A stretch of DNA of 64,000 nucleotides, taken from the NCBI GenBank assembly GCA_963813155.1, contig CAWEYG010000001.1, forward strand, positions 800,001-864,000, written 5' to 3'. Source of the stretch: an uncultured Acidobacteriota bacterium. GTDB lineage: Bacteria > Acidobacteriota > Thermoanaerobaculia > UBA5066 > DATFVB01. Below the pieces are notes generated by a model. The model saw only the letters and a list, made by a program, of their open reading frames with translations, was not told the DNA's origin and made no database searches. Of the stretch, positions 2,283 through 24,232 are shown one piece after another (the first letter of the stretch is position 1; the number at the start of each line of letters is the position of its first letter). The translations under genes were made by a program, and so were the position numbers.

Positions 2283-5281
2283 TTAGAAGCTCAAGCGAGC
2301 TCCAAACCGGAGGACCCGCGGGCTCACCCGCTCCTCGACGCGATTGCCCTTGCCCGGGCAGCTCACAGCCGCATTGGCCGCGCCGCAGGGCTTCGTCTGC
2401 TGCAACTGCGCCGCCTGCTGGATGACGGTGTCGCTGTTCAAGGCGTTGAACATGTCGATCGACAGGGTCAGATCCGCCTTCTGGAACAGGGGAAGGACCT
2501 TTTCCGCCCGCAGATCGAGCTGGTAGACGTTCTTCAGGCGGTGGTCGTCGCTGTTGCCGACGATGACGTTGCGCGAGCCCAGGGAGGCGCCCACGTCGCC
2601 GCCGGAGACCGACGCGTAGTAGGGGATCAGGTAGCCCTGGCGGCCGAACAGGTTGGCCGCGACGTTGAAGTTCAGCGGCAACTGGTACAGGCCGCTGATG
2701 TTGAACTGGTACTTCGAGCTCAGGAACACGTCGCCCTTCGAGCCCGAACCCGTGCGATTCCTGGAACGCCTGAACGCCGTCGCCGCAGCTCGGGCCGCCG
2801 GTCGTCAGAACGTTCGTGGGACCCTTCCAGGTGTTGACCGTGCCGAGGCAGCCGTTCGCGCCGTTGACTTTCTGCTTCCAGTCGGTGTAGGCGACGGAAC
2901 CGTGCATCATCCACCGGTTGGAGAGCCGCTTCGTCAACTGCAGCTCGACTCCGTTGTAGTCCATCGTGTACCCCGGGTCGTTCCCCAGGATCAGGCCGCC
3001 GTTGAATCCGGCCGGGGCGATGAAGTCGTAGTAGTTGCCGGTCTTGCCGATGATGTTGCCCTGCTGGTCATAGGCGTTCAAGCCGCTGCGGCTCGGGTCG
3101 AGAACGAAATCCGAGGCGTCCACGCCGATGTATTTCGTGCTGATGAAATCCGAGCGGTGGCGGTGGGTGTACGTCACGCCGGCGACCAACTCCGGAAGGA
3201 TCTGGTGGTCGATGCCGAACATGAACTCGTCGGTCTTCGTGTTCTTGATGCCCGAGGCGATCTTCTTCGGCGAGGTGAGCGAGGTCGGGTTGGCCGGATC
3301 GATGCCGGTGTAGAAGTAGTTCGCTCCGAGCTCGCCCGGATCCGCGAGACCGTTGTGGTTCGCGTCCGTGAAGGGATACGTCAGATAGGTGTAGCCGACC
3401 GGGTTGTCGTACGCGACGCTGCCCGATCCGAGCTGGTCCGCGAACCTCGCGTAAGAAGCGCGAAGCAGCGTGGACTTCTGGGCGCCCAGGGCGTAGGTGA
3501 TGCCCACGCGGGGCTCCCAGTCCTTGTAGTGCAGCTCCGTCGGGCCGCCCGGGAAGGCCAGCGCGGGGATGCAGGGGTTCGACAGCGAGAACGCCTGGCT
3601 CGGGTCGCAGGCCGAGTTGTTGCCCGGCGCGCCCGAAGCGGCGTTGAAGCCCTTCTGGTCGTCGTAGCGAACGCCGACGTTGACCGTCAGGTTGTTGGCC
3701 GTCAGCGTGTCGCCGATGAACGCATCGTAGTAGGTCATCGTCTCGTTGACCGCCAGGTTGCGCTCGAGCTTCACGTACGACTGGCCGCTGCCGTTGTAGT
3801 TGAGGTAGTGATGTCCTGGTTGCCCGGCCAGGTCGTCTGCGAGCCGCCGATGATGTGGCGGTAGCCGAACCCGAACTTGAGCTCGTGTCCGATCGACCCG
3901 GTGTTGAAGAAGTACGACGCGCTGCCCGTCGCCTGGTGCTGCGGGCGATACGTTCCGTACCGGTAGAAGGTTCCCTGCCACACTTCGTTGGCGTCCTGGG
4001 TCATGTTCGGCCCGAGGCCCGCCTGCGGGGCGAGAGCGAACCCGCCGCGCACGTAGCTGTAGGAGGCGTTCAAGACGAAGTTCGGTCCGAAGACCTGCGA
4101 GTCGTCGCCCTTCCAGATCACGGTCGGTCCGCTCTGGTTCCACGCCGTGCCCTGGCCGCGGTTGGAGACCGCCGTGCGGCCGAGCTTGATCTTGTCGCCG
4201 CGGAAGTAGAACGCGGTCGCCGAGTTGGACTCGACCGGCTGGATGTTCAGCTTGCCGGCCCAGTTCTCGAGGGTCGTCAGATCCGGGGCCGCCGAAGAGA
4301 GCTTGATCAGGTCGATCTGATCGCGCCCGTAGCTTCCCCACAACCACGCCTTGTCGGCCCAGATCGGTCCGCCCGCTTCCACACCGTAGTCCTGGATGTG
4401 GTCGATCGAGTTACCGCTGCCGACCTTGAGAGTCGTCGGCCCGCCGAGCGACGCGCTGTACGGTCCGACCGCGTCCGCGGTTCGCCCGCGCTTCGGTCTC
4501 GTTCGGCGTGTCGAAGATTCGCGCCGATCCGTGCACTTCGTTGGTGCCGCGCTTGGTCACCATGTTGAGCGTGACGCCCGGGACCGCGATCGAAGGATCC
4601 GATCCGCCCGTCGTCGCCTGCATTTCCTGGAACGCGTCGAAGTCGTAGTACGTCGAGGACGATCCCGAGAGCCGACATGTCCGTCACGGCCACGCCGTCG
4701 ACGAGCCACGCGTTCTGCGACGAGTCCACGCCCTTGCCGATGTAGACCGACTGCTGGCCGCTCTCGCTGCCCGCCACGTTGGCCCGGTCGACCTGGACGG
4801 AAGGCACCTGCTGCAACACGACCCAGGGGTCGCGCGCCGTCGGGATGCTCTTCAGCTGTTCCTGCGTGAAGTCCGATCCCGAGCTCACCCGGCGCGTGTC
4901 GAGCAGCGGCGTCTCGGAAGACACCGTGATCGTCGTCGCCACCGAGGCGATCTTCATCGGAATCGCGACTTCCGTGTTGGAACCCAGGCTCACCGTCACG
5001 TTCGTGCGCTCCACGGTCGAAAAACCGTTGAGCTCCGTCTTGACGGTGTAGGTTCCCGGCGAAAGGTTGAGGAACCGGAATTCCCCCTGACCTCCCGTCG
5101 TGCTCGTCCGCGCGGCTCCGCCGCCGGACAGCGTCACCGAGACCCCGGGCAGCGCGCCGCCCGACTCGTCGGTGACCTTCCCGTAAATGTTGCCGTACGT
5201 CGCCGAAGCTCCCTGCCCGAACAGGGGCGCGGCGCAGACGGCTGCCATCAGACAGATGGCAAATAGTCTGAACACCTTCAT
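2283..5281 (-). CDS. Oar-like TonB-dependent outer-membrane receptor, split by about 4 frameshifts (probably sequencing errors)
   Basis: MKVFRLFAICL signal, carboxypeptidase-regulatory N-domain (GNIYGKVTDESGGALPGVSV), plug (IPTARDPW...GVTLNMVTKRGTN), barrel (GGPIWADKAW...WEPRVGITY) and C-terminal PRVLRFGARLSF, spread over ORFs 4307-5326, 4411-4623, 3771-4382, 2224-4347 and 2283-2729. Confidence 0.85.
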
Positions 5282-5514: not shown

Positions 5515-6858
5515 ATGGAAGCGATCGTCGTCGGCGGGGGTTTTGCGGGTGTGGAGTGCTGCTGGCAGCTCGCCCGGCGAGGTCATCGCGTGAGGCTCTT
5601 CGAGATGCGTCCGGAGGTCCCCACGGCTGCGCACCAATCCGCGAATCTGGCGGAAATGGTCTGCTCCAACTCGTTTCGTTCCGACAACCCGCACAACGCG
5701 GTGGGGCTCCTCAAGCGCGAAATGGAGGCTCTCGGCTCGCTCGTGATGGCGCGTGCGAGGGAGTCGGCCGTGCCGGCCGGCGACGCTCTCGCCGTCGATC
5801 GCGACGCCTTTGCGCGCTCCGTCACGGCGGCGATCGAAAACGAGCCGAATATCGAGATCGTCCGCGAGGAATGCCCCGACCTCCCTGCCCGCGGGATCGT
5901 CGTCCTCGCGACGGGACCGCTCACGTCGGCGAGGCTGTCCGAGTCGATCCGGGCGCTCCTCGGGGAAGGAGAGCTCTACTTCTACGACTCGATGGCGCCG
6001 ATCGTGACGGCCGATTCGCTCGACTTCGCGAAGATCTACCGCGCCTCGCGGTACGGCAAGGGCGAAGGCGAGGACTACCTGAACTGCCCCCTCGACCGCG
6101 CGCAATACGAAGAATTCATTTCCGACCTGCTCGCGGGCGAAACCGTCCCGATTCACGAGTTCGAAAAGGGGATCTATTTCGAGGGCTGTCTTCCGATCGA
6201 GGTCATGGCGGAGCGAGGCGCCGAGACGCTGCGGCACGGCCCGCTCAAGCCCATGGGCCTCGAAGACCCGCGCACGGGCCGCCGCCCGCACGCGGTCGTT
6301 CAATTGCGGCAGGACGACCTCGCCTCGGAGCACTACAACCTCGTCGGGTTCCAGACGAAGCTTCGGGTCGGAGAGCAGAAGAGGATCTTTCGGAAAATCC
6401 CCGGCCTCGAAAACGCGAACTTCGTGCGATTCGGAATGCTCCACCGGAACACCTACATCCACTCCCCCGCCCACCTCGACCGGTTCTTCCGGATGCAGGC
6501 GAACTCCCGGGTCTTTTTCGCGGGCCAGATCACGGGCGTCGAGGGGTACCTGGAATCCGCGGCGACCGGCCTCTACGTCGGCCGGACGGTCGCGCAGCTT
6601 CTGGAGGGATCCGATCCGGTCCCGGCGCCGTTCGACACGGCTCTCGGGTCTCTTTCCCGGCACTGCTCGCAGCGCCCGCGGACGAAGACCTTCGAGCCGA
6701 TGAACGTCACGTTCGGAATGATCGAAGATTCCGCGCAGCCGGACGTTCGCGATCGGGCGCAGCGCCGCAAGATCGTGTGCGACCGCGCGCTCGAATCGAT
6801 CGGGCGCTACGAAGAGCTCACGCGCGGCCCGCGCCCCGCGGCCGCGCTCGCGGGATGA
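5515..6858 (+). CDS. trmFO: Methylenetetrahydrofolate-tRNA (uracil-5)-methyltransferase TrmFO
   Basis: GGGFAG FAD motif, LAEMVCSNSF, YFEGCLPIE, LVGFQTKL, FAGQITGVEGYLESAATG. Confidence 0.95.
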   Translation: MEAIVVGGGFAGVECCWQLARRGHRVRLFEMRPEVPTAAHQSANLAEMVCSNSFRSDNPHNAVGLLKREMEALGSLVMARARESAVPAGDALAVDRDAFARSVTAAIENEPNIEIVREECPDLPARGIVVLATGPLTSARLSESIRALLGEGELYFYDSMAPIVTADSLDFAKIYRASRYGKGEGEDYLNCPLDRAQYEEFISDLLAGETVPIHEFEKGIYFEGCLPIEVMAERGAETLRHGPLKPMGLEDPRTGRRPHAVVQLRQDDLASEHYNLVGFQTKLRVGEQKRIFRKIPGLENANFVRFGMLHRNTYIHSPAHLDRFFRMQANSRVFFAGQITGVEGYLESAATGLYVGRTVAQLLEGSDPVPAPFDTALGSLSRHCSQRPRTKTFEPMNVTFGMIEDSAQPDVRDRAQRRKIVCDRALESIGRYEELTRGPRPAAALAG

Positions 6859-7958
6859 CGACCCGGGGCGCGGCCCTCGCGGCCGCGGCGCTCGCGGGCG
6901 CTGCTCTCTTCGTCGCGGCCGGACTTTCCGCGGCTCCCCGGCCCGACAAGGCGTCGAACGCCCGTCCTCTTCCGGTCCTCCTGCGCGAGGCTCGCGACTT
7001 CGCGCAGGCGGGCGACCCGCGCGCCCGCGACCGATACCTGGACGCGATCCGCCAGAATCCGTCGGACGCTTCGGTTCGAGCCGAGCTCGCCGACTACCTC
7101 TGGGGAACCGGCAACCCGACCGAGGCAGAGGCGCAGATGGACTGGCTCGTCGCCCGCGGTCATCCGCGCCCCGGCTTTCTCCGCTTCTACGGGCTCCGGC
7201 TGTTCGAAGCCGGAAACTTCGTGAAAGCCTCGCAGATCCTCGAGAGCGCATCGCGGGAAGGGAGCCCCGACTACGACCTGCTCTTCTGCCTCGGCACGGC
7301 CCGGCTGGAAAAGGGGGACTTTCCGGGCTCCGAGCAGGCCCTGCGCGGCGCCATCCGGAAATCTCCCGGCCAGGCCTCCGCGCACCACATCCTCGGCAAC
7401 CTTCTCAAGCTGACGGCGCGGCCGCGGGAAGCGGTCGTCGAGCTGCGGCTGGCGGCCGGCGCGGAGGAGTCCTCGGCCGATACGTGGCTCGATCTGGCGC
7501 AGGCGCTCGCGGCAGACGGAGAGCGGCCCGAGGCCGAGGAAGCGTGCCGCCGGTCGATCCGCCTTCAGCCGGACCGGGCCGCCGCTCACCTCACGCTCGG
7601 CCGGATTCTCCGGGCGGAGGGGAAAGCGGAGGAAGCCGCGTCGGAGCTCGCCGCGAGCCGGTCGCTTTACGACCGCGAAGAGGAGCAGGCCGAGAAGAAC
7701 CGCGGCGCGGCCGCGCGCACGTCCCAGGGATGGGTGCTGCTCCGGATGAACCGACCGGCCGACGCGCTCGCGCAGTTCGAGAGCATTCCGGAGTCTTCCG
7801 CGTCCGGCTGGAGAGGGCGCGCCGAAGCGCTCGAGCGGCTCGGACGGCGGGAGGACGCGATCGGCGCGCTCGAACGGGCGAAGACGATGTCTCCCGACGA
7901 CCACTCGCTCGACTACGCGCTCGCCCGGCTGCGGGCCGCGGTCCCGCGGCAGCCATGA
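6855..7958 (+). CDS. Secreted TPR-repeat protein
   Basis: ATGA overlap with trmFO; signal peptide; several TPR helical pairs (C-terminal part of ORF 5556-7958). Confidence 0.8.
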   Translation: MTTRGAALAAAALAGAALFVAAGLSAAPRPDKASNARPLPVLLREARDFAQAGDPRARDRYLDAIRQNPSDASVRAELADYLWGTGNPTEAEAQMDWLVARGHPRPGFLRFYGLRLFEAGNFVKASQILESASREGSPDYDLLFCLGTARLEKGDFPGSEQALRGAIRKSPGQASAHHILGNLLKLTARPREAVVELRLAAGAEESSADTWLDLAQALAADGERPEAEEACRRSIRLQPDRAAAHLTLGRILRAEGKAEEAASELAASRSLYDREEEQAEKNRGAAARTSQGWVLLRMNRPADALAQFESIPESSASGWRGRAEALERLGRREDAIGALERAKTMSPDDHSLDYALARLRAAVPRQP

Positions 7959-9604
7959 AGCACGTCGCGATCTTTCTCGGTCTCCTGATGGGCGCGACAA
8001 TCTCGCCATCCGTGCGATCGGCGCCCCGCGCGGCTCCGGCAGCGGCCGCGGCGTGTCCCGTCTCCTTCGAAGACGTCGCCGCCCGCGCCGGGATTTCCTT
8101 TCGGCACGAGCGGGGCGCGACGCCGGCTCACCGGCTCGCCGAAACGATCGGGTCGGGCGTGGCCTGGCTCGACTTCGACAACGACGGATGGCTCGACCTC
8201 TTCGTCGTGCAGTCGGGCGCGCTTCCGGACGGAGACACGGGAAAGCTCTTCCGCAACAACGGGAACGGGACGTTTACGGACGTCACCGCGAAATCGGGCA
8301 TCGGCACGAAGCTCTACGGAATGGGAGCGGCCGCCGCCGACTACGACAACGACGGGTTCATCGACCTCTACGTCACCGGGTACGGACGCAACGTCCTGTA
8401 CCACAACAACGGGAACGGGACGTTCACCGACGTCACCGACCGCGCCGGCGCGCGCGGCTCGGCCTGGAGCACGAGCGCGGCCTGGGCGGATTTCGACGGC
8501 GACGGATTTCTCGACCTTGCCGTCGTCCGTTACGTCGACACGACGCCCGAGCCGTCTTTTTTCTGCGGAGACCGCTCCGTCAATCGCCGCGACTATTGCG
8601 ACCCGGAGCTCTACCCGCCGGCCCCGATGCTCCTCCTGCACAACAACGGCGACGGGACGTTTCGGGACATTTCCGAGTCGTCGGGAGTCGCCGCCGCGAA
8701 GGGAAAGTCCCTCGGCGTCGTCGCTTCGGATCTCGACGGCGACGGCCGGCCCGACCTCTACGTCGCGAACGACACGACGATCAACTTCCTGTTCCACAAC
8801 CTCGGATCGAACCGGTTCGAGGACGCTTCCCTCTCGTCGGGCGCGGGGGTGAACCTGAACGGCAAGCCGCAGGGGGGAATGGGAGTCGACGCCGGCGATC
8901 TCGACGGCGACGGCAAGACGGACCTCGTCGTCACGAACTTCGAATCCGAGATCAACTCGAACTTCCGCAATCTCGGCGATCTCGTCTTCGAAGACGTCTC
9001 GGCGACGAGCGGATTCGGGGGGCCCTCGTTCCCGTTTTCCGGGTTCGGGTTGAATCTCGCGGACTTCGGCAACCGCGGCCGCCTCGATGCGTTCATCGCG
9101 AACGGCCACGTGCTCGACAAGCCGAAGCTCCAGGTGGCCACCCGCGCGCAGCGCCCGTTCCTGATGTGGAACGACGGGACCGGGCATTTCCACGAACAGG
9201 GATGCGGCGCTCCGTTCTCCCGCCCGCTCGTGGGCCGCGGTTCGGCCGCCGGTGATTTCGACAACGACGGTTTTCCCGATCTCGCCGTCTCGAACTCCGG
9301 CGGCCCGCTCGAACTGCTGCGCAACGGCGGGAACTCGAACGCGTGGGCGGGCGTCCGCTTGCGCGGGACGCGGTCCAACCGCGAAGGCATCGGGGCTGTC
9401 CTGACTCTGGAGACCGACCGCGGCCGCCAGGTTCGCGAGGTCAAGTCGGGCGGGAGCTACCTCTCCTCGGGAGACCCCCGCGTGGTTTTCGGCCTGGGAG
9501 CCGGCGCGAAGATCCGGAAGCTCGAGATCCGCTGGCCCTCCGGCACGGTGCAGACGGTCGACGGGCTTCCGCTCCGGAAGTACACGCTCGTCACCGAGCC
9601 CTAG
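7955..9604 (+). CDS. CRTAC1-like FG-GAP/VCBS repeat protein with ASPIC-UnbV domain
   Basis: Repeated DxDxDGxxDL motifs, SNREGIGA, GSYLSSGDPRVVFGLG, IRWPSG. Confidence 0.9.
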   Translation: MKHVAIFLGLLMGATISPSVRSAPRAAPAAAAACPVSFEDVAARAGISFRHERGATPAHRLAETIGSGVAWLDFDNDGWLDLFVVQSGALPDGDTGKLFRNNGNGTFTDVTAKSGIGTKLYGMGAAAADYDNDGFIDLYVTGYGRNVLYHNNGNGTFTDVTDRAGARGSAWSTSAAWADFDGDGFLDLAVVRYVDTTPEPSFFCGDRSVNRRDYCDPELYPPAPMLLLHNNGDGTFRDISESSGVAAAKGKSLGVVASDLDGDGRPDLYVANDTTINFLFHNLGSNRFEDASLSSGAGVNLNGKPQGGMGVDAGDLDGDGKTDLVVTNFESEINSNFRNLGDLVFEDVSATSGFGGPSFPFSGFGLNLADFGNRGRLDAFIANGHVLDKPKLQVATRAQRPFLMWNDGTGHFHEQGCGAPFSRPLVGRGSAAGDFDNDGFPDLAVSNSGGPLELLRNGGNSNAWAGVRLRGTRSNREGIGAVLTLETDRGRQVREVKSGGSYLSSGDPRVVFGLGAGAKIRKLEIRWPSGTVQTVDGLPLRKYTLVTEP

Positions 9605-20787: not shown

Positions 20788-20861
20788 TGGGAGGTCGTCC
20801 AACGGTAGGACACGTGGCTCTGGACCACGTTATCGGGGTTCGAATCCCTGCCTCCCAGCCA
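20788..20861 (+). tRNA. tRNA-Gln (anticodon CTG)
   Basis: Acceptor TGGGAGG/CCTCCCA, anticodon arm CGTGG-CT CTG GA-CCACG, GGTTCGAATCC T-arm, encoded CCA. Confidence 0.95.
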
Positions 20862-20926
20862 ATTTTCGCAAGCCCTTCAAGCTCGTCCTGCGGCGCTTCG
20901 CGCGTCGCCGCGGAGCGGCACACCCT

Positions 20927-21937
20927 TCAAGGCAGGGTCCGGGTCACGCCGAGCGAGAGCGTGAGCCCCTGGTGAAAGGTCTGGCCCGAGCTTCCGTGGG
21001 CGAAGATCTCCCGGTAGAGCCCGGCCGAGATCGTCGTTTTCGGCGACGCCCGGAACGTGCCGCGCAGCACCGTGCCGCCGCTCGTGAACCCCGTTCCTTC
21101 GTCCTCGAGCCCATGCCATTTTCCGACGCTCTGGTACTGACCGGAGAATTGGAGCGAGACCGAGAATGCGCCCATCGGCATTGCCGGACCTACGCCCCAT
21201 TGAATGTTGACCGGCGGCTTATAACCGCCGCTGCTCTCGTACACCGGCAGCCGCGCATCGACCGCCTCTCCGAGCAGGACGTTTCCCACGCGCTCGAAGG
21301 CGCTCACGACGAGTCTCGGGTCAAACGTTCCGCTGCCGAACTGCAAGTGCTCGTGCTTTTTCCCTTCGAGACCGAGTCGCACGGGATCGGGCACGGTCTT
21401 TCCGATCGGAAGCGTCGTCCCGGCCGCGAGCGTGACTCCCCACGAAGTCCCGGAGAGAAACGCGGGCGCCTTCCAGTACAGCAGCTCGCCGTCGCTCACG
21501 CCCCAGAGAGTCTCGGTGCGGTGATGGATGTCGCCATAGGGGGGAACGTACGGCTGCCCGTCGAGCGTCTCGTAGTGAACGTGCTGGTCCTTGACGTCGT
21601 AAGGGATGCGCAGGGAGAGTTGAGAATTCGCGCCGAGCCCGTACGCCGCGAAAAGATCCGCGTGGTAGAGATCCAGCGCGATGACGTGGCGGTGCGGCGG
21701 GATCGTCATCGTTGCGCACTCGACGGGAGCGACATCGGGACACGTCGCGACGTGACTCGTATCGAATCGCCCCTCGGCGAGACTAAGCGTAACCGTCCAC
21801 CCGCCGGGTGGCGTGATCTGCTGGCCGACCTCTCGCCCGGAGAGGTTAGGGTTCGCTCAGGCCGGTCAACCGCCGGCCGCAGGAACTGCCTGAATCAGCG
21901 TGAGCATCAAAGCGGCGAGGAATCCGCGCCGGATCAT
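20927..21937 (-). CDS. Candidate double-selenocysteine (UxxU) His-rich envelope protein, probably an outer-membrane beta-barrel, 336 aa
   Basis: ATG at 21937 overlaps the upstream stop (ATGA). Frame MIRRGFLAALMLTLIQAVPAAGG-TGA-P-A-TGA-ANPNLSGRE... continues without shift into ORF 20927-21709. SECIS-like hairpin 10 nt after the second TGA. Alternating beta-strand pattern and LQFGSGTFDP motif. Confidence 0.75.
21828..21846 (-). promoter_or_regulatory. Putative bacterial SECIS element
   Basis: mRNA UGA-GCGAACCCUA-ACCUCUC-CGGGC-GAGAGGU: 7-bp perfect stem and G-containing 5-nt loop; the loop begins 17 nt after the second UGA and 26 nt after the first. Confidence 0.65.
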
Positions 21938-22599
21938 CGGGACGCCGCCTTCGCCTTTTCGATCAAGGCAAGGATCTCGTCCCACATGCCGCCGCTGCCG
22001 GCGAGTTTTCCCGCGCCGCCGTAGACACGAACGTACGGGAGGCTCGCAGCTCCCTGCCGCGTGATTTGACGGGCGGCCGCGTTGTCCCACTTCCCGATGT
22101 CCACGCGACGCAGCGCGATTTCGGGATGCAGCACCATGTAGTGCTCCAGCCGGAGCTCCAGCGTTTTGCAGGGGCCGCACCAGTCGGCGTAGTAGTCGAC
22201 GAGCGTTGTCTTGCCGGCGGCCGAAAGCCCCTTTTCGTCGACCGGGCTTTTCCCGTCGAATCGGCGGAGATCGAGCTTCGCGAGCTCCTCCGGCGGAAGC
22301 GGCTCGAATCCTCGGGCGGCCTCGCCGGGAAAGACCGCGACGAACCCGAGGTTGTCGAGCGCTGCCTTGAGCCTGTCCTTGTCGAACCCGGGCGGGACGT
22401 CGACCTCGGCGGCTTCCTTTTTCCAGTCCACGCGGGCTTTCTCGACCCCGGGCGTCGATGTCAGCGCTTTCTGTATCGGAGCCGCGCAGAGCTCGCATTC
22501 GATCCCGATGACGTGAAATCGGAATGTCTCCGCTCCCGACGGCGATGCCGAGAGAACGGTGAACAAAGAGACGATGAGGGATAAACGAGTTGCCTTCAT
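21934..22599 (-). CDS. Secreted heavy-metal-associated (HMA) domain-thioredoxin fusion
   Basis: Signal peptide; GIECELCA...PGVEKARVD HMA fold; VDYYADWCGPCKTL thioredoxin motif. Confidence 0.9.
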   Translation of the reverse strand: MKATRLSLIVSLFTVLSASPSGAETFRFHVIGIECELCAAPIQKALTSTPGVEKARVDWKKEAAEVDVPPGFDKDRLKAALDNLGFVAVFPGEAARGFEPLPPEELAKLDLRRFDGKSPVDEKGLSAAGKTTLVDYYADWCGPCKTLELRLEHYMVLHPEIALRRVDIGKWDNAAARQITRQGAASLPYVRVYGGAGKLAGSGGMWDEILALIEKAKAASR

Positions 22600-22662
22600 G
22601 GAAAACCTCCTTCCGAAAGTACGAGAGGAAGAACTGCGCGGACAGGCGCCCGCGCGGCGCGC

Positions 22663-23019
22663 TCAGACGCGCAGCGTGGAAAGGAGGATCGAAAGGCTCC
22701 GCGTGGCTTCGGGAGGACCGTGGAGGGAGGCGACGTCGGTGACAAAGCGACTCGCCGGGAGAGACGTCGAAGGCCAGGAGAACGTCGGAACCGGTCCGAC
22801 CAACAGCGAAGGCGGCGTTACTCCCGCCGATCTCGAGGAGAGGACGATCGGGGCCGCACCCTTCTTTTCGCCCCGGCAGCAGTCCGGCATCGGACAGCAA
22901 TCCGGCGACGAGGCAGCTGTTTCAAGGCTTGCGAGCGAGCAGCAGGGATGGCGCAGAGGCATCCCGAGTCCGGAAAGCAACCCGAACGAAACGAGGAGGA
23001 CCACGACGCGCTTCCCCAC
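22663..23019 (-). CDS. Small Cys-rich leader-type protein with C-terminal HGPP motif
   Basis: N-terminal hydrophobic helix, HPCC...DCCPMPDCC, Pro/Ser linker, LHGPP...LSILLSTLRV. Confidence 0.65.
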   Translation of the reverse strand: MGKRVVVLLVSFGLLSGLGMPLRHPCCSLASLETAASSPDCCPMPDCCRGEKKGAAPIVLSSRSAGVTPPSLLVGPVPTFSWPSTSLPASRFVTDVASLHGPPEATRSLSILLSTLRV

Positions 23020-23043
23020 GCTCTCGATGGTACACCTCCTGGC

Positions 23044-24232
23044 CTACCGCTCCACTTCGAGCGCGAGCGCCGTCCAGTCGTCGCCCAGATCCGAACTCGT
23101 CGCGTTCCGGACGGCCGCGAACAGCGAGTCGAGAAGCTCGCCGGTGGAAGCCGCCGCGCGCGGAATGAGGGATTGCAGCGCCTCGTAGCCGAGCGGATCT
23201 CCCGCCGCCGTCGAGGCCTCCGGCAGGCCGTCCGTGAACATCAGGAGACGCTCGCCCGCGCCCAAAGTCGATCGACAGCGATTCGTACGCGACCTCGCCG
23301 CGGGCGCCGAGCGGCAGCCGGGGCCCGGGACCGAGGGCCTCCGCGTCCTGCCCGCGGACGAGACGGTACGGGTCGGGTATGCCGGCATTGGAGAGCTCGA
23401 GAGTCCGAGACGCCGGGTCGTACCGCGCGTACGCGAGCGCGACGAATTCGCGCGCGCCGAGCTCCGCGTGGAGCTTGCGGTTCAGTTGCGCGAGGGTTTC
23501 CGCCGTCCCGCGCCCTTCGGCGATCAGCGGCAGGACCGCCTTCACGGAGGCCATGATCAGGCTCGCGCCCATTCCCTTCCCCGAGACGTCCGCCACGACG
23601 ATCCCGAGCGCGCCGTCGGAGAGGCGGAAGACGTCGTAGAAATCGCCCGCGACGAAACGCGCCGCGAGATTGCGCGCCGAGATCCGGTAGCCGTCGCCCG
23701 AGAGCTCCGGCGGCGGCAGCAGCCGGCTCTGGATCTCGCGAGCGACGGCCAGCTCTTTTTCCGCGAACTCCTGCTCCTTGATGCGGATGATCGATTCGCG
23801 CAGCCGCGTGCGCATCACGCCGAACGTGTAGAACAGCAGGCCTCCCGCGACCGCGACCCCGCCGCTGATGAAAAGCGAGACACGCAGGTCGCTCCCGTCC
23901 ATCTGGAACGGCATCAGCCCGAGCACCCGGAGGAGCAGCGTCGCCGCGAGGATGCCCAGGATGCCGCCGGCGAAGTAGATCGGCACGCCAACGAGCCTGT
24001 CCGGAAAGATCTTGCGCCGGCGGATCGGGTCGCCGACGGCATTGTCGAGCCCGTAGCAGAACACGTAGATCACGGCGCCCACGACCGCGCCGTACAACAC
24101 GAGGCGTCCGCCCCAGAAATCCCGCCGGTTGATCGTCGTCAGGAAGACGACCCCGACGCCGGCGAACGCCGAAACCGCGATCGAGCGCAGGGTCGCGGCG
24201 AAATGGTCGCGTCGGTCGGCCGGGGTGTTCAC
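23044..24232 (-). CDS. Membrane-anchored PP2C/SpoIIE-type phosphatase (frameshifted near the 3' end)
   Basis: Four TM helices, ELAVAREIQ, GDFYD, VADVSGKG, NAG; FTDGL and DDWT lie in ORF 23044-23388. Confidence 0.85.

Follow-up and report, generated by a model that had tools for sequence, protein, structure and literature searches.

What role do three tightly packed genes, one of them carrying two in-frame TGA codons near its start, play in the envelope of an uncultured Acidobacteriota bacterium? The genes lie on the minus strand of the window, the 64,000-nucleotide stretch of DNA that we analyzed, and the initial annotation had described them as three co-oriented genes with a 63-bp gap and an ATGA overlap, all of which is present in the sequence. 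The first, taken from the ORF listing, encodes a Cys-rich small protein of 118 aa, hereafter the leader (22663..23019, minus strand); 63 bp further on, the second encodes a secreted HMA-thioredoxin (HMA-Trx) fusion of 221 aa (21934..22599, minus), recognized by its Pfam domains and 27 homologues; and the third, which shares the ATGA at 21934-21937 with the second, encodes in 336 codons plus a stop (20927..21937, minus) what homologues, an AF2 model, and fold matches suggest is an outer-membrane barrel with two selenocysteines (Sec). The thiol and selenol motifs that had been noted (three CC pairs, CELC with WCGPC, and UPAU) were all found, as was the convergent tRNA-Gln (CTG) at 20788..20861 on the plus strand, the downstream limit of the cluster. 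Within the gap between leader and HMA-Trx, a GC-rich hairpin that ends in a T-rich tail (22636..22655, minus) may be an attenuator, a terminator, or a product of chance; the site scan found three terminator-like sites with 2.5 expected, which is not significant, and an anti-hemB Rfam match over 22598-22680 was sub-threshold (28 bits versus 49.5). The promoter scan found no minus-strand promoter, and no metal-related gene flanks the module within the window.

A crucial question is how the barrel gene is read. Its frame opens at the ATG at 21937 (MIRRGFLAALMLTLIQAVPAAGG), contains TGA at codon 24 (21866-21868) and codon 27 (21857-21859), and stays open after both until the stop at 20927-20929. 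Were the TGAs true stops, the gene would be broken, or its protein would start from the ATG at 21709 and comprise 260 aa with no signal peptide. The annotation of relatives, in which only a shortened ORF appears, agrees with true stops and with Sec decoding alike: the called proteins of close relatives lack the N-terminus, and among the 120 matches listed the query coverage never exceeds 88%. The comparative record argues strongly in the other direction. One genome from each of 185,579 species yielded 503 confirmed loci, the best 80 of which we compared. In 54 of these 80, spread over several phyla, TGA-x-x-TGA follows straight after the signal peptide at the same two codons, with Cys in the rest (CxxC in 24, CxxU in 1, and 1 truncated gene), so that the UxxU motif proposed at the outset is real. 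Six other genomes of the phylum also carry two TGAs each, at protein identities of 31-46%. Because the arrangement recurs in these 54 loci and six genomes, it exceeds chance by sequence comparison. Behind the signal peptide, C-x-x-C-x-N-P is found in 15 of the 15 full-length representatives retrieved, and our family alignment (A1) shows no variation in columns C24 and C27. The in-frame signal peptide upstream of the TGAs (residues 1-23, 21869..21937, minus) is likewise conserved; in homologues it ends in A-x-A (for example AYA, AFA, or LHA) followed at once by U/C-x-x-U/C, and cleavage is predicted right ahead of the first Sec. A barrel deprived of this peptide would be unable to reach the outer membrane. 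Contigs from three soil-metagenome runs, each from a separate study, span the TGA pair, and among the 40 differences listed (143 more exist) none falls at 21857-21868.

The full Sec machinery is encoded in the genome, with SelA at 456.5 bits (cut-off 267.9), SelB at 351.2 bits (cut-off 242.25), SelD at 331.9 bits (cut-off 125), and tRNA-Sec at 71.3 (cut-off 47). Every Sec-type carrier tested has SelA or SelB above cut-off (SelA in four of five; SelB in G230, G278, and G250), and in G230, a genome 95% complete, the UxxU gene occurs with no SelA match above cut-off. Of 401 genomes of the phylum, 297 have SelA above cut-off, so its co-occurrence with UxxU discriminates little.

A candidate SECIS hairpin, ACCUCUC-CGGGC-GAGAGGU (21828..21846, minus), was identified by folding and comparative pairing, and its stem starts 10 nt past the second UGA. 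As a single sequence it is no more stable than its shuffles (z -0.37, with 64 of 200 shuffled versions reaching the same stability), another point on the side of true stops. In 29 sequences of the Acidobacteriota/Thermoanaerobaculia type, the equivalent hairpin has 91% of its cells paired and one compensatory pair (CG in 23, UA in 6, unpaired in none), and a second comparative set has 94% of cells paired with four compensatory pairs. Some Cys-type genes fold at the same place (locus L085, -32 kcal/mol), the Rfam search returned no bacterial SECIS match, and RNAalifold on the Thermoanaerobaculia-type set gave a different, invariant long-range stem of eight pairs that includes the second UGA and has no covariation. 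Given SelA, SelB, SelD, and tRNA-Sec in the genome, the UxxU and CxxC locus counts, and the conserved hairpin after the TGA pair, both TGAs very probably encode Sec, and we read UGA-CCG-GCC-UGA (21857..21868, minus) as Sec24-Pro-Ala-Sec27, with Cys at both positions in homologues. We consider true stops extremely improbable.

The AF2 model of the encoded protein has a pLDDT of 86.3 and a pTM of 0.83, with an N-terminal arm of low confidence (pLDDT 53-65). Foldseek matched it to FapF and 4rl8 at E values of about 1e-10 (1.6e-10 for 4rl8), and VIA-align superposed 251 of 268 residues on 4rl8_C (Z 24.3, rmsd 2.6) and gave a Z of 23.8 for FapF, with the following group of structures at 18.3 or below. 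On these models, we confidently assign the product to the 12-stranded outer-membrane barrels of the COG4313/FapF class, as the initial annotation had anticipated in calling it a barrel; AF2 strands, invariant columns, and fold matches place the predicted beta-barrel domain at residues 47-336 (20930..21799, minus). Pfam matched the window barrel to no family at E values up to 1. PF13557 matched 3 of 20 A1 members weakly (best E 0.0013); because the window protein misses this model and only the distant representative P0242 passes it (31.5 bits against a cut-off of 22), we class the barrel as a family of its own that is related to PF13557. When 20 family members were scanned, none had an NCBIfam match in its barrel part, and the barrel profile retrieved from the PDB sequences just NanC, at a meaningless E value of 4-5. 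The selenol pair had been proposed to capture metal at an outer-membrane pore. As the predicted mature N-terminus of a barrel with 12 strands, the motif would by topology start in the lumen or on the periplasmic face rather than at an outer pore mouth.

The barrel residues that are invariant in A1 include H62, H84, H138, H139, R140, D149, H195, H197, Y233, and W274. The six His among them, which include H138-H139-R140 (21518-21526) and H195-x-H197 (21347-21355), would be odd ligands for Hg(II); Cu, Zn, or a catalytic site would fit better. Such residues could belong to an outer-membrane metallo-enzyme or redox protein in which the Sec/Cys pair and the six His form a fixed metal center, of copper for example, and for which HMA-Trx would be an assembly factor, keeping the pair reduced for metal loading and delivering the metal in the manner of TlpA and PcuC/Sco for CuA. 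The invariant His together with R140, D149, Y233, and W274 resemble an active site more than a conduit, and LpxR, a 12-stranded barrel enzyme, is among the VIA-align matches (Z 13.9). The best structural relatives, however, are the channels 4rl8 and FapF; the Pfam, NCBIfam, and PDB profile searches revealed no likeness to any enzyme family, and the gene context yields no substrate candidate.

The upstream gene product, HMA-Trx, has a predicted signal peptide at approximately residues 1-23, an HMA domain (PF00403; 33.0 bits, cut-off 24.8) at residues 28-86 that includes C35-E-L-C38 (22486-22497), and a Thioredoxin domain (PF00085; 34.9 bits, cut-off 23.5) at residues 126-177 that includes W140-C-G-P-C144 (22168-22182). 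Residues C35, C38, W140, C141, P143, and C144 are invariant among 27 homologues (alignment A6). Its product is predicted to be secreted to the periplasm as a MerP-like HMA domain fused to Trx. Of the 80 best loci, 64 have this gene directly ahead of the barrel gene (41 of 54 UxxU loci and 23 of 24 CxxC loci), and among nine long barrel representatives seven carry a C-terminal Trx domain and one a C-terminal HMA domain; the search found no longer fused forms of at least 589 aa, which is a weak negative. This adjacency and the barrel-Trx and barrel-HMA fusions make a two-gene module of barrel and HMA-Trx the real unit, as judged from gene order and domain composition. The direct fusion of Trx to the barrel in seven of nine long representatives also counts in favor of a metallo-enzyme.

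The three-gene unit originally supposed is not conserved: the HMA-Trx/barrel pairing recurs in many phyla, but a leader-like gene was recognized beside only 7 other loci. The leader has a hydrophobic N-terminus, three CC pairs (HPCCS, PDCCP, and PDCCRG), and a C-terminus reading ...LSILLSTLRV, and it is predicted to be exported or anchored. Vicinal CC pairs of this kind are typical of MerT and MerA. Eight proteins of the same architecture (alignment A2) all have one CC that does not vary and, at the C-terminus, L-x-x-LR[LIV]. No Pfam family matched any of the eight, the window leader had no match in Pfam or NCBIfam, and a profile search returned 20 matches, all hypothetical, of which P0288 is 69% identical. 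Inspection by eye of the region ahead of HMA-Trx at 28 Sec-type loci (22 of them Acidobacteriota/Thermoanaerobaculia) revealed no leader-like ORF, a weak negative because high GC keeps every frame open. On this distribution of sequences, the leader is an occasional accessory third member, in some lineages only.

Which metal, then, might such a module handle? Mer-type genes lie within 4 kb of 13 of the 17 Bacteroidota CxxC loci. The genes beside Cys-type loci include MerA at 501 and 514 bits (cut-off 454), MerTP at 268, 202, and 185 bits (cut-off 180), and GDCCVxC at 102 and 99 bits (cut-off 40). The soft-metal role first suggested for the cluster fits this setting, and by analogy with the Cys-type homologues the module most likely handles mercury-like metals. 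At the window locus itself no mer operon was found, with no MerA or MerT nearby; the genome has no MerA above cut-off (best 346.5 versus 454.45) and no MerTP or MerT above cut-off, and only one of five other Sec-type carriers has MerA, on a different contig. The mercury link thus comes from one Cys-type clade only. When HMA-Trx was scored as a MerP (TIGR02052), it reached 25.9 bits against an equivalog cut-off of 92.55.

The same architecture and relay could instead serve copper or silver, taking up or disposing of Cu(I) across the outer membrane with the help of a CopZ-like chaperone in the periplasm. The HMA domain resembles CopZ models no less than MerP (36.2 bits for CopZ_AFE_1862, 25.9 bits for MerP), both under cut-off; Cu is a good fit for the His clusters, six Bacteroidota loci adjoin CsoR-family regulators, and most carriers are without MerA. 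Among the best 80 loci, however, CopA, multicopper oxidase, and Cus genes do not recur beside the module, and the named neighbors that do recur are MerA, MerTP, and GDCCVxC. We grant copper or silver a minor share of the probability. The same gene context bears on the metallo-enzyme, which would agree with a module standing alone in the window genome without MerA or MerT, but the mer-operon setting of the Cys clade implies a metal that is transported rather than held as a cofactor; we consider such an enzyme unlikely.

On balance, we favor, with confidence somewhat above even, a thiol/selenol relay module that would carry Hg-type soft metals between the outer membrane and the periplasm and be kept reduced by Trx. 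SelA, SelB, tRNA-Sec, and the downstream hairpin would decode both UGAs, and the mature N-terminus would read Sec-Pro-Ala-Sec. The diselenol of the barrel arm (a dithiol in the Cys relatives) would bind a thiophilic metal, and the invariant His cluster of the lumen or loops would probably take part; Hg(II) would be the best-supported metal in the relay, with Cu(I) or Ag(I) possible. A ligand swap would then pass the metal between the arm and the HMA domain, creating a protein-bound path between outer membrane and periplasm, and the Trx domain would re-reduce the readily oxidized Sec/Cys pair. A point against the relay is that a dithiol acceptor would have to draw the metal away from a diselenol, which is a thermodynamically uphill step. 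The all-Cys version of the Bacteroidota would feed the MerTP/MerA pathway; in the window genome, which has neither MerA nor MerT, the module would operate by itself, either trapping metal with high affinity or giving it a way out or in. The comparisons establish the gene structure, the Sec/Cys homology, the Sec machinery, the fold, the synteny, the fusions, and the mer setting; that a metal is bound, which metal it is, which way it moves, what Trx reduces, and where the electrons come from are inferences. More tentatively, and with somewhat less than even confidence, we propose that the module may be the missing outer-membrane component for Hg and soft metals: a channel with a mobile dithiol or diselenol arm and its own HMA-Trx, mostly in double-Sec form, that would capture Hg(II) independently of MerA. 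If this is true, it would be the first outer-membrane barrel family with Sec rather than Cys as its prevalent state, and its diselenol form would give MerA-independent, high-affinity Hg(II) capture at the cell envelope.

These loci add a widespread selenoprotein family, the best 80 alone spanning the Acidobacteriota, Planctomycetota, Bacteroidota, Myxococcota, Gemmatimonadota, Eisenbacteria, Poribacteria, and Pseudomonadota. Because gene callers systematically shorten these genes, counts of envelope proteins and selenoproteins in soil bacteria are too low. The module also provides a hypothesis, open to testing, for the passage of thiophilic metals through the outer membrane or their capture there, and its Sec and Cys forms are a natural system pair for asking why selenium is favored in metal sites.

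Several known systems resemble parts of this module. The COG4313 channel (Pput2725, 4rl8, PF13557 Phenol_MetA_deg) and FapF (5o65), described as channels for hydrophobic substrates and for amyloid subunits, respectively, are 12-stranded like the window barrel and also have an N-terminal segment before strand 1; the superpositions (Z 24.3 and 23.8) extend over 251-259 residues at rmsd 2.6-2.8, while sequence identity is 12-18%. Within its own alignment, the barrel family is defined by the C/U-x-x-C/U-x-N-P motif and the invariant His. The MerP/MerT relay (TIGR02052; NF033556 MerTP) shares a periplasmic HMA domain with a Cys pair, and Cys-type modules adjoin MerTP and MerA; here, in contrast, the HMA domain is fused to Trx, and its partner is an outer-membrane barrel rather than the inner-membrane MerT. 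The accessible part of a 2021 review of mer systems depicts the crossing of the outer membrane as diffusion (PMC8261052).

As first supposed, the module appears to be undescribed: the barrel has no Pfam or NCBIfam model, the accessible portions of the literature contain no description of it, and the family is absent from the accessible part of a 2026 catalogue of 119 selenoprotein families (PMC13188914). Table 1 of that catalogue includes two double-Sec families, NF041115 UxxU_metal_bind (a "metal-binding (seleno)protein" of HMA type) and NF045683 (a MerT/CopZ fusion-like selenoprotein), which also place a Sec pair or Sec in a heavy-metal-binding protein. NF041115 scores 31.6 bits on HMA-Trx against a cut-off of 95, hits this gene only in a genome search (33.9), and does not match the barrel. 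In those two families the Sec pair lies inside the HMA domain, whereas here the HMA domain keeps its CxxC and an unrelated barrel protein carries the Sec pair. The same table lists outer-membrane selenoprotein barrels, namely the TonB-dependent receptors of FCYXU type (NF049945) and the GSU2204 MtrB/PioB family (NF041027) (PMC13188914 Table 1); these have a single Sec, belong to other barrel families, and carry other motifs than the window barrel with its pair.

The barrel gene in the window belongs to a genuine, widespread and unannotated family of double-selenocysteine outer-membrane barrels with a dedicated periplasmic HMA-thioredoxin (HMA-Trx) partner. The gene (20927-21937, minus strand) opens with an ATG and a typical signal peptide and carries TGA-CCG-GCC-TGA as codons 24-27, beyond which the frame stays open for 309 further codons. 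An ATGA overlap joins it to the HMA-Trx gene (21934-22599, minus strand), whose 221-aa product is led by a signal peptide and scores above cut-off for two domains, HMA at residues 28-86 (C-E-L-C, 33.0 bits, cut-off 24.8) and thioredoxin at residues 126-177 (W-C-G-P-C, 34.9 bits, cut-off 23.5). A 63-bp gap separates the HMA-Trx gene from a leader gene (22663-23019, minus strand), which codes for 118 aa that begin with a hydrophobic stretch and include three vicinal Cys pairs. The three genes are co-oriented; a gene for a SpoIIE/PP2C phosphatase flanks them on one side, and on the other tRNA-Gln (20788-20861, plus strand), which is convergent with them, forms one border of the cluster. The surrounding genes of the window (PP2C, ECF sigma factor, hydrolases, FG-GAP proteins) are unrelated. 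All of the sequence details that the initial annotation listed for the three genes (ORFs, spacing, motifs, TGA pair and tRNA-Gln) proved correct.

Three features of the flanks and spacers were also observed. Two further soil-metagenome runs (X2 and X3) yield contigs that match the window across the barrel gene and diverge at 20925, just beyond its stop, and the tRNA-Gln junction is therefore not common to all related strains. Upstream of the leader, the SpoIIE/PP2C gene lies in two reading frames (22922-24232 and 23044-23388, both minus strand); the division of its Pfam profile over them (positions 1-123 in one, 119-191 in the other) suggests that near 23390 there is either a frameshift or an error in the sequence. 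Within the gap between the leader and HMA-Trx genes (22598-22680, minus strand) there is a hairpin, GC-rich and followed by a T-rich tail, together with a below-threshold match to Rfam anti-hemB (28 bits versus 49.5); this may be due to chance, or it may allow the leader to be expressed independently of the pair of genes downstream.

The two TGAs of the barrel gene are, we consider nearly certain, selenocysteine (Sec, U) codons, making the protein a selenoprotein. By curated cut-offs, the window's genome, which is 90.8% complete, encodes SelB (351.2 bits versus 242.25), SelA (456.5 versus 267.9), tRNA-Sec (71.3 versus 47) and SelD (G000:C3:921620-922561, locus L125; 331.9 versus 125); the last has one in-frame TGA, so this selenophosphate synthetase is probably a selenoprotein itself. 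Genome-wide recoding of TGA was ruled out because other genes of the cluster terminate in TGA. A word-indexed protein search with the barrel returned 313 relatives; the 120 matches listed cover at most 88% of the query at lengths of 222-296 aa, as expected if gene callers begin downstream of the TGAs. Six-frame reading of 401 genomes of the phylum, a tally that takes in three unpublished genomes (G049, G152 and G024) on which no specific claim rests, found a barrel match in 12; two in-frame TGAs are present in seven of these (protein identity 31-46%), among them the window's own, and a single TGA in one further match. Scanning one genome per species across 185,579 species yielded 503 confirmed barrel loci, and among the best 80 the residues directly behind the signal peptide read UxxU in 54, CxxC in 24 and CxxU in 1, with the pattern lost at a contig end in 1. 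At E of 0.001 or lower, an exhaustive HMMER search found 430 representatives, and all 15 full-length ones fetched have C-x-x-C-x-N-P at that site. Across a 20-sequence alignment both motif positions are always C or U, followed by an invariant N29-P30.

Two of the UxxU loci are irregular. At L036 (G250:C12, about 6414-8793) the barrel gene is in two pieces ~1.2 kb apart, its own HMA-Trx is N-terminally truncated, and transposase-like ORFs lie both downstream and upstream; the barrel gene seems to have been disrupted, perhaps by an insertion. The homologue at L066 (about 4016 onward) has a further stop or TGA only 85 codons past the motif; this could represent a third Sec codon, result from a frameshift or mean that the gene is broken.

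A quick tree of 78 rows, which left out L066 (frame ending after 85 residues) and L092 (without the motif), places two Cys clades, one of 17 Bacteroidota rows and one of 7 rows, mostly Myxococcota, among the Sec lineages and demands at least three Sec/Cys state changes, the direction of which cannot be claimed because the tree is unrooted. Two near-identical copies in one Poribacteria MAG (L093 and L117) differ in the leading residue of the pair, C-S-A-U against U-G-A-U, and look like a snapshot of Sec/Cys exchange.

A SECIS element after the second TGA is probable rather than proven. The 29 Acidobacteriota/Thermoanaerobaculia-type sequences, the window's among them, share a 7-bp hairpin (CCUCUCC-GGC-GGAGAGG) starting 11-12 nt past that codon, with pairing in 91.1% of cells; one pair changes from CG to UA in six sequences with zero unpaired cells, and the covariation score is 0.129 versus 0.080 in shuffles (reached by 0 of 500), slid controls giving at most 0.080. 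Ten unpaired cells at one hairpin position would, on our own reading of the alignment, reflect variant pairing via a one-base bulge. Twelve Planctomycetota/Acidobacteriota "SNPS-type" sequences have a second hairpin with a conserved apex (CCGG-UYC-GG), 94% paired, with both-sided changes in four of seven pairs and a whole-structure score of 0.418 versus 0.169 (reached by 0 of 500). Against a SECIS, the window hairpin by itself is not unusually stable (z -0.37), RNAalifold favoured a different, invariant stem, and some Cys-type genes also have a hairpin at the same place, just behind the CxxC-x-NP codons (L085, about 4063-4125, -32 kcal/mol; Bacteroidota such as L070). Given the nesting of the Cys clades in the tree, these may be relic SECIS elements after Sec-to-Cys replacement, or structures with another role.

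The protein is very likely an outer-membrane barrel. An AlphaFold2 model from the 20-row alignment (pLDDT 86.3, pTM 0.83) has 12 strands over residues 47-335 and an N-terminal arm (residues 21-40) at pLDDT 53-65. Foldseek placed the amyloid-subunit channel FapF and the COG4313 channel 4rl8 on top (E about 1e-10, TM 0.55-0.69), and VIA-align agreed (4rl8, Z 24.3, rmsd 2.6 over 251 aligned; FapF, Z 23.8), with autotransporter barrels clearly below (Z at most 18.3). Several autotransporter alignments begin at model residues 23-25; such ranges give end points alone, in a region of low confidence, and hint at most that the arm may sit inside the lumen of the model. The window barrel matched no Pfam or NCBIfam model. 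Among the 20 aligned members, PF13557 weakly matches the barrel in three (best E 0.0013), and in all 20 the barrel part is without an NCBIfam match, the only scores there coming from HMA and Trx domains in fused forms. The PF13557 threshold is reached by one distant representative. Ten residues are invariant in the alignment (H62, H84, H138, H139, R140, D149, H195, H197, Y233 and W274); strand order in the model puts all of them at strand ends or in loops on the side away from the termini. By general porin topology an even strand number places both termini of a barrel in the periplasm, so these residues would face the extracellular half or the lumen.

Barrel and HMA-Trx are quite likely partners. 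The initial annotation proposed a three-gene module; the HMA-Trx/barrel pair held up, 64 of the best 80 loci (41 of 54 UxxU, 23 of 24 CxxC) having a same-strand HMA-Trx match that ends no more than 400 bp upstream of the barrel, but the leader is a real, sporadic accessory. A match of this kind is missing at 16 loci: 10 from Planctomycetota, two of which have less than 500 bp of upstream flank, 2 from Poribacteria, L097, L113, L116 and the truncated L092. All-against-all ORF clustering of the best 80 loci revealed no other widely common neighbor. CxxC and WCxPC are invariant in 27 HMA-Trx homologues. Leader-like proteins were selected by eye on three traits: hydrophobicity at the N-terminus, many Cys in the middle, including an invariant CC, and L-x-x-LR[LIV] at the C-terminus. 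Their genes precede the module at seven related loci (L035, L071, L073, L083, L090, L093 and L104); the C-terminal motif is present in six of eight aligned sequences, L090 and L093 lacking it. None was recognized by eye in 28 Sec-type loci, 22 of them Acidobacteriota/Thermoanaerobaculia, and a leader profile search found 20 proteins only, every one unnamed.

Nine long barrel representatives (393-488 aa) comprise seven with a C-terminal thioredoxin, one with a C-terminal HMA domain and one plain PF13557-type barrel. Since the barrel C-terminus is periplasmic, the fused domains share a compartment with the N-terminal Sec/Cys pair, and the fusions argue for direct functional coupling with it. At one Acidobacteriota locus (L021/L033 in genome G322, 7117-8487) a UxxU barrel continues in-frame through a His/Glu-rich linker into a thioredoxin with W-C-I-P-C, and no separate HMA-Trx match turned up at this locus.

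A soft-metal role for the module is somewhat favored. The sole named gene context is in Bacteroidota, where mer-type genes lie within 4 kb of 13 of 17 CxxC loci: MerA (NCBIfam 501 and 514 bits, cut-off 454), MerTP (268, 202 and 185, cut-off 180) and GDCCVxC (102 and 99, cut-off 40). None of these stands beside Sec-type loci, L108 having a small thioredoxin only; in the window's genome no MerA reaches its cut-off and MerTP is lacking, and only one of five other Sec-type carriers (G230) has MerA away from the module. From two-gene conservation, fusions, CxxC/UxxU and HMA chemistry and the mer context, we infer a relay in which a thiophilic metal would pass by ligand exchange between the Sec/Cys arm of the barrel and the HMA domain, while the Trx domain would hold the Sec/Cys pair reduced; the relay would be joined to MerTP/MerA in Bacteroidota and act alone in the window's genome. 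Mercury-type metals appear most likely, with Hg(II) the best supported. The His cluster of the barrel and the unfavorable energetics of selenium-to-sulfur metal transfer lead us to keep in play two other roles, one in copper handling and one in which the barrel houses a fixed metal centre and HMA-Trx serves as its assembly factor.

The initial annotation did not recognise the system as a described one, which agrees with literature text searches, in which no description of the module was found, with NCBIfam release 20.0 and with Table 1 of a 2026 review of prokaryotic selenoproteins (PMC13188914), where the double-Sec barrel is not among the 119 families. Closest to it in that table are an HMA-type UxxU protein (NF041115), selenoproteins of the MerT-like and P-type-ATPase kinds, a CxxU-bearing TonB receptor and an MtrB/PioB-type barrel, each a different family from the window's barrel, which the NCBIfam models, those of these selenoprotein families included, leave unmatched. 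Passages of a 2022 review (PMC9312934) have no closer entry. Crossing of the outer membrane is depicted as diffusion in passages of a 2021 mer review (PMC8261052). The module would represent a new form of metal handling by thiol relay.
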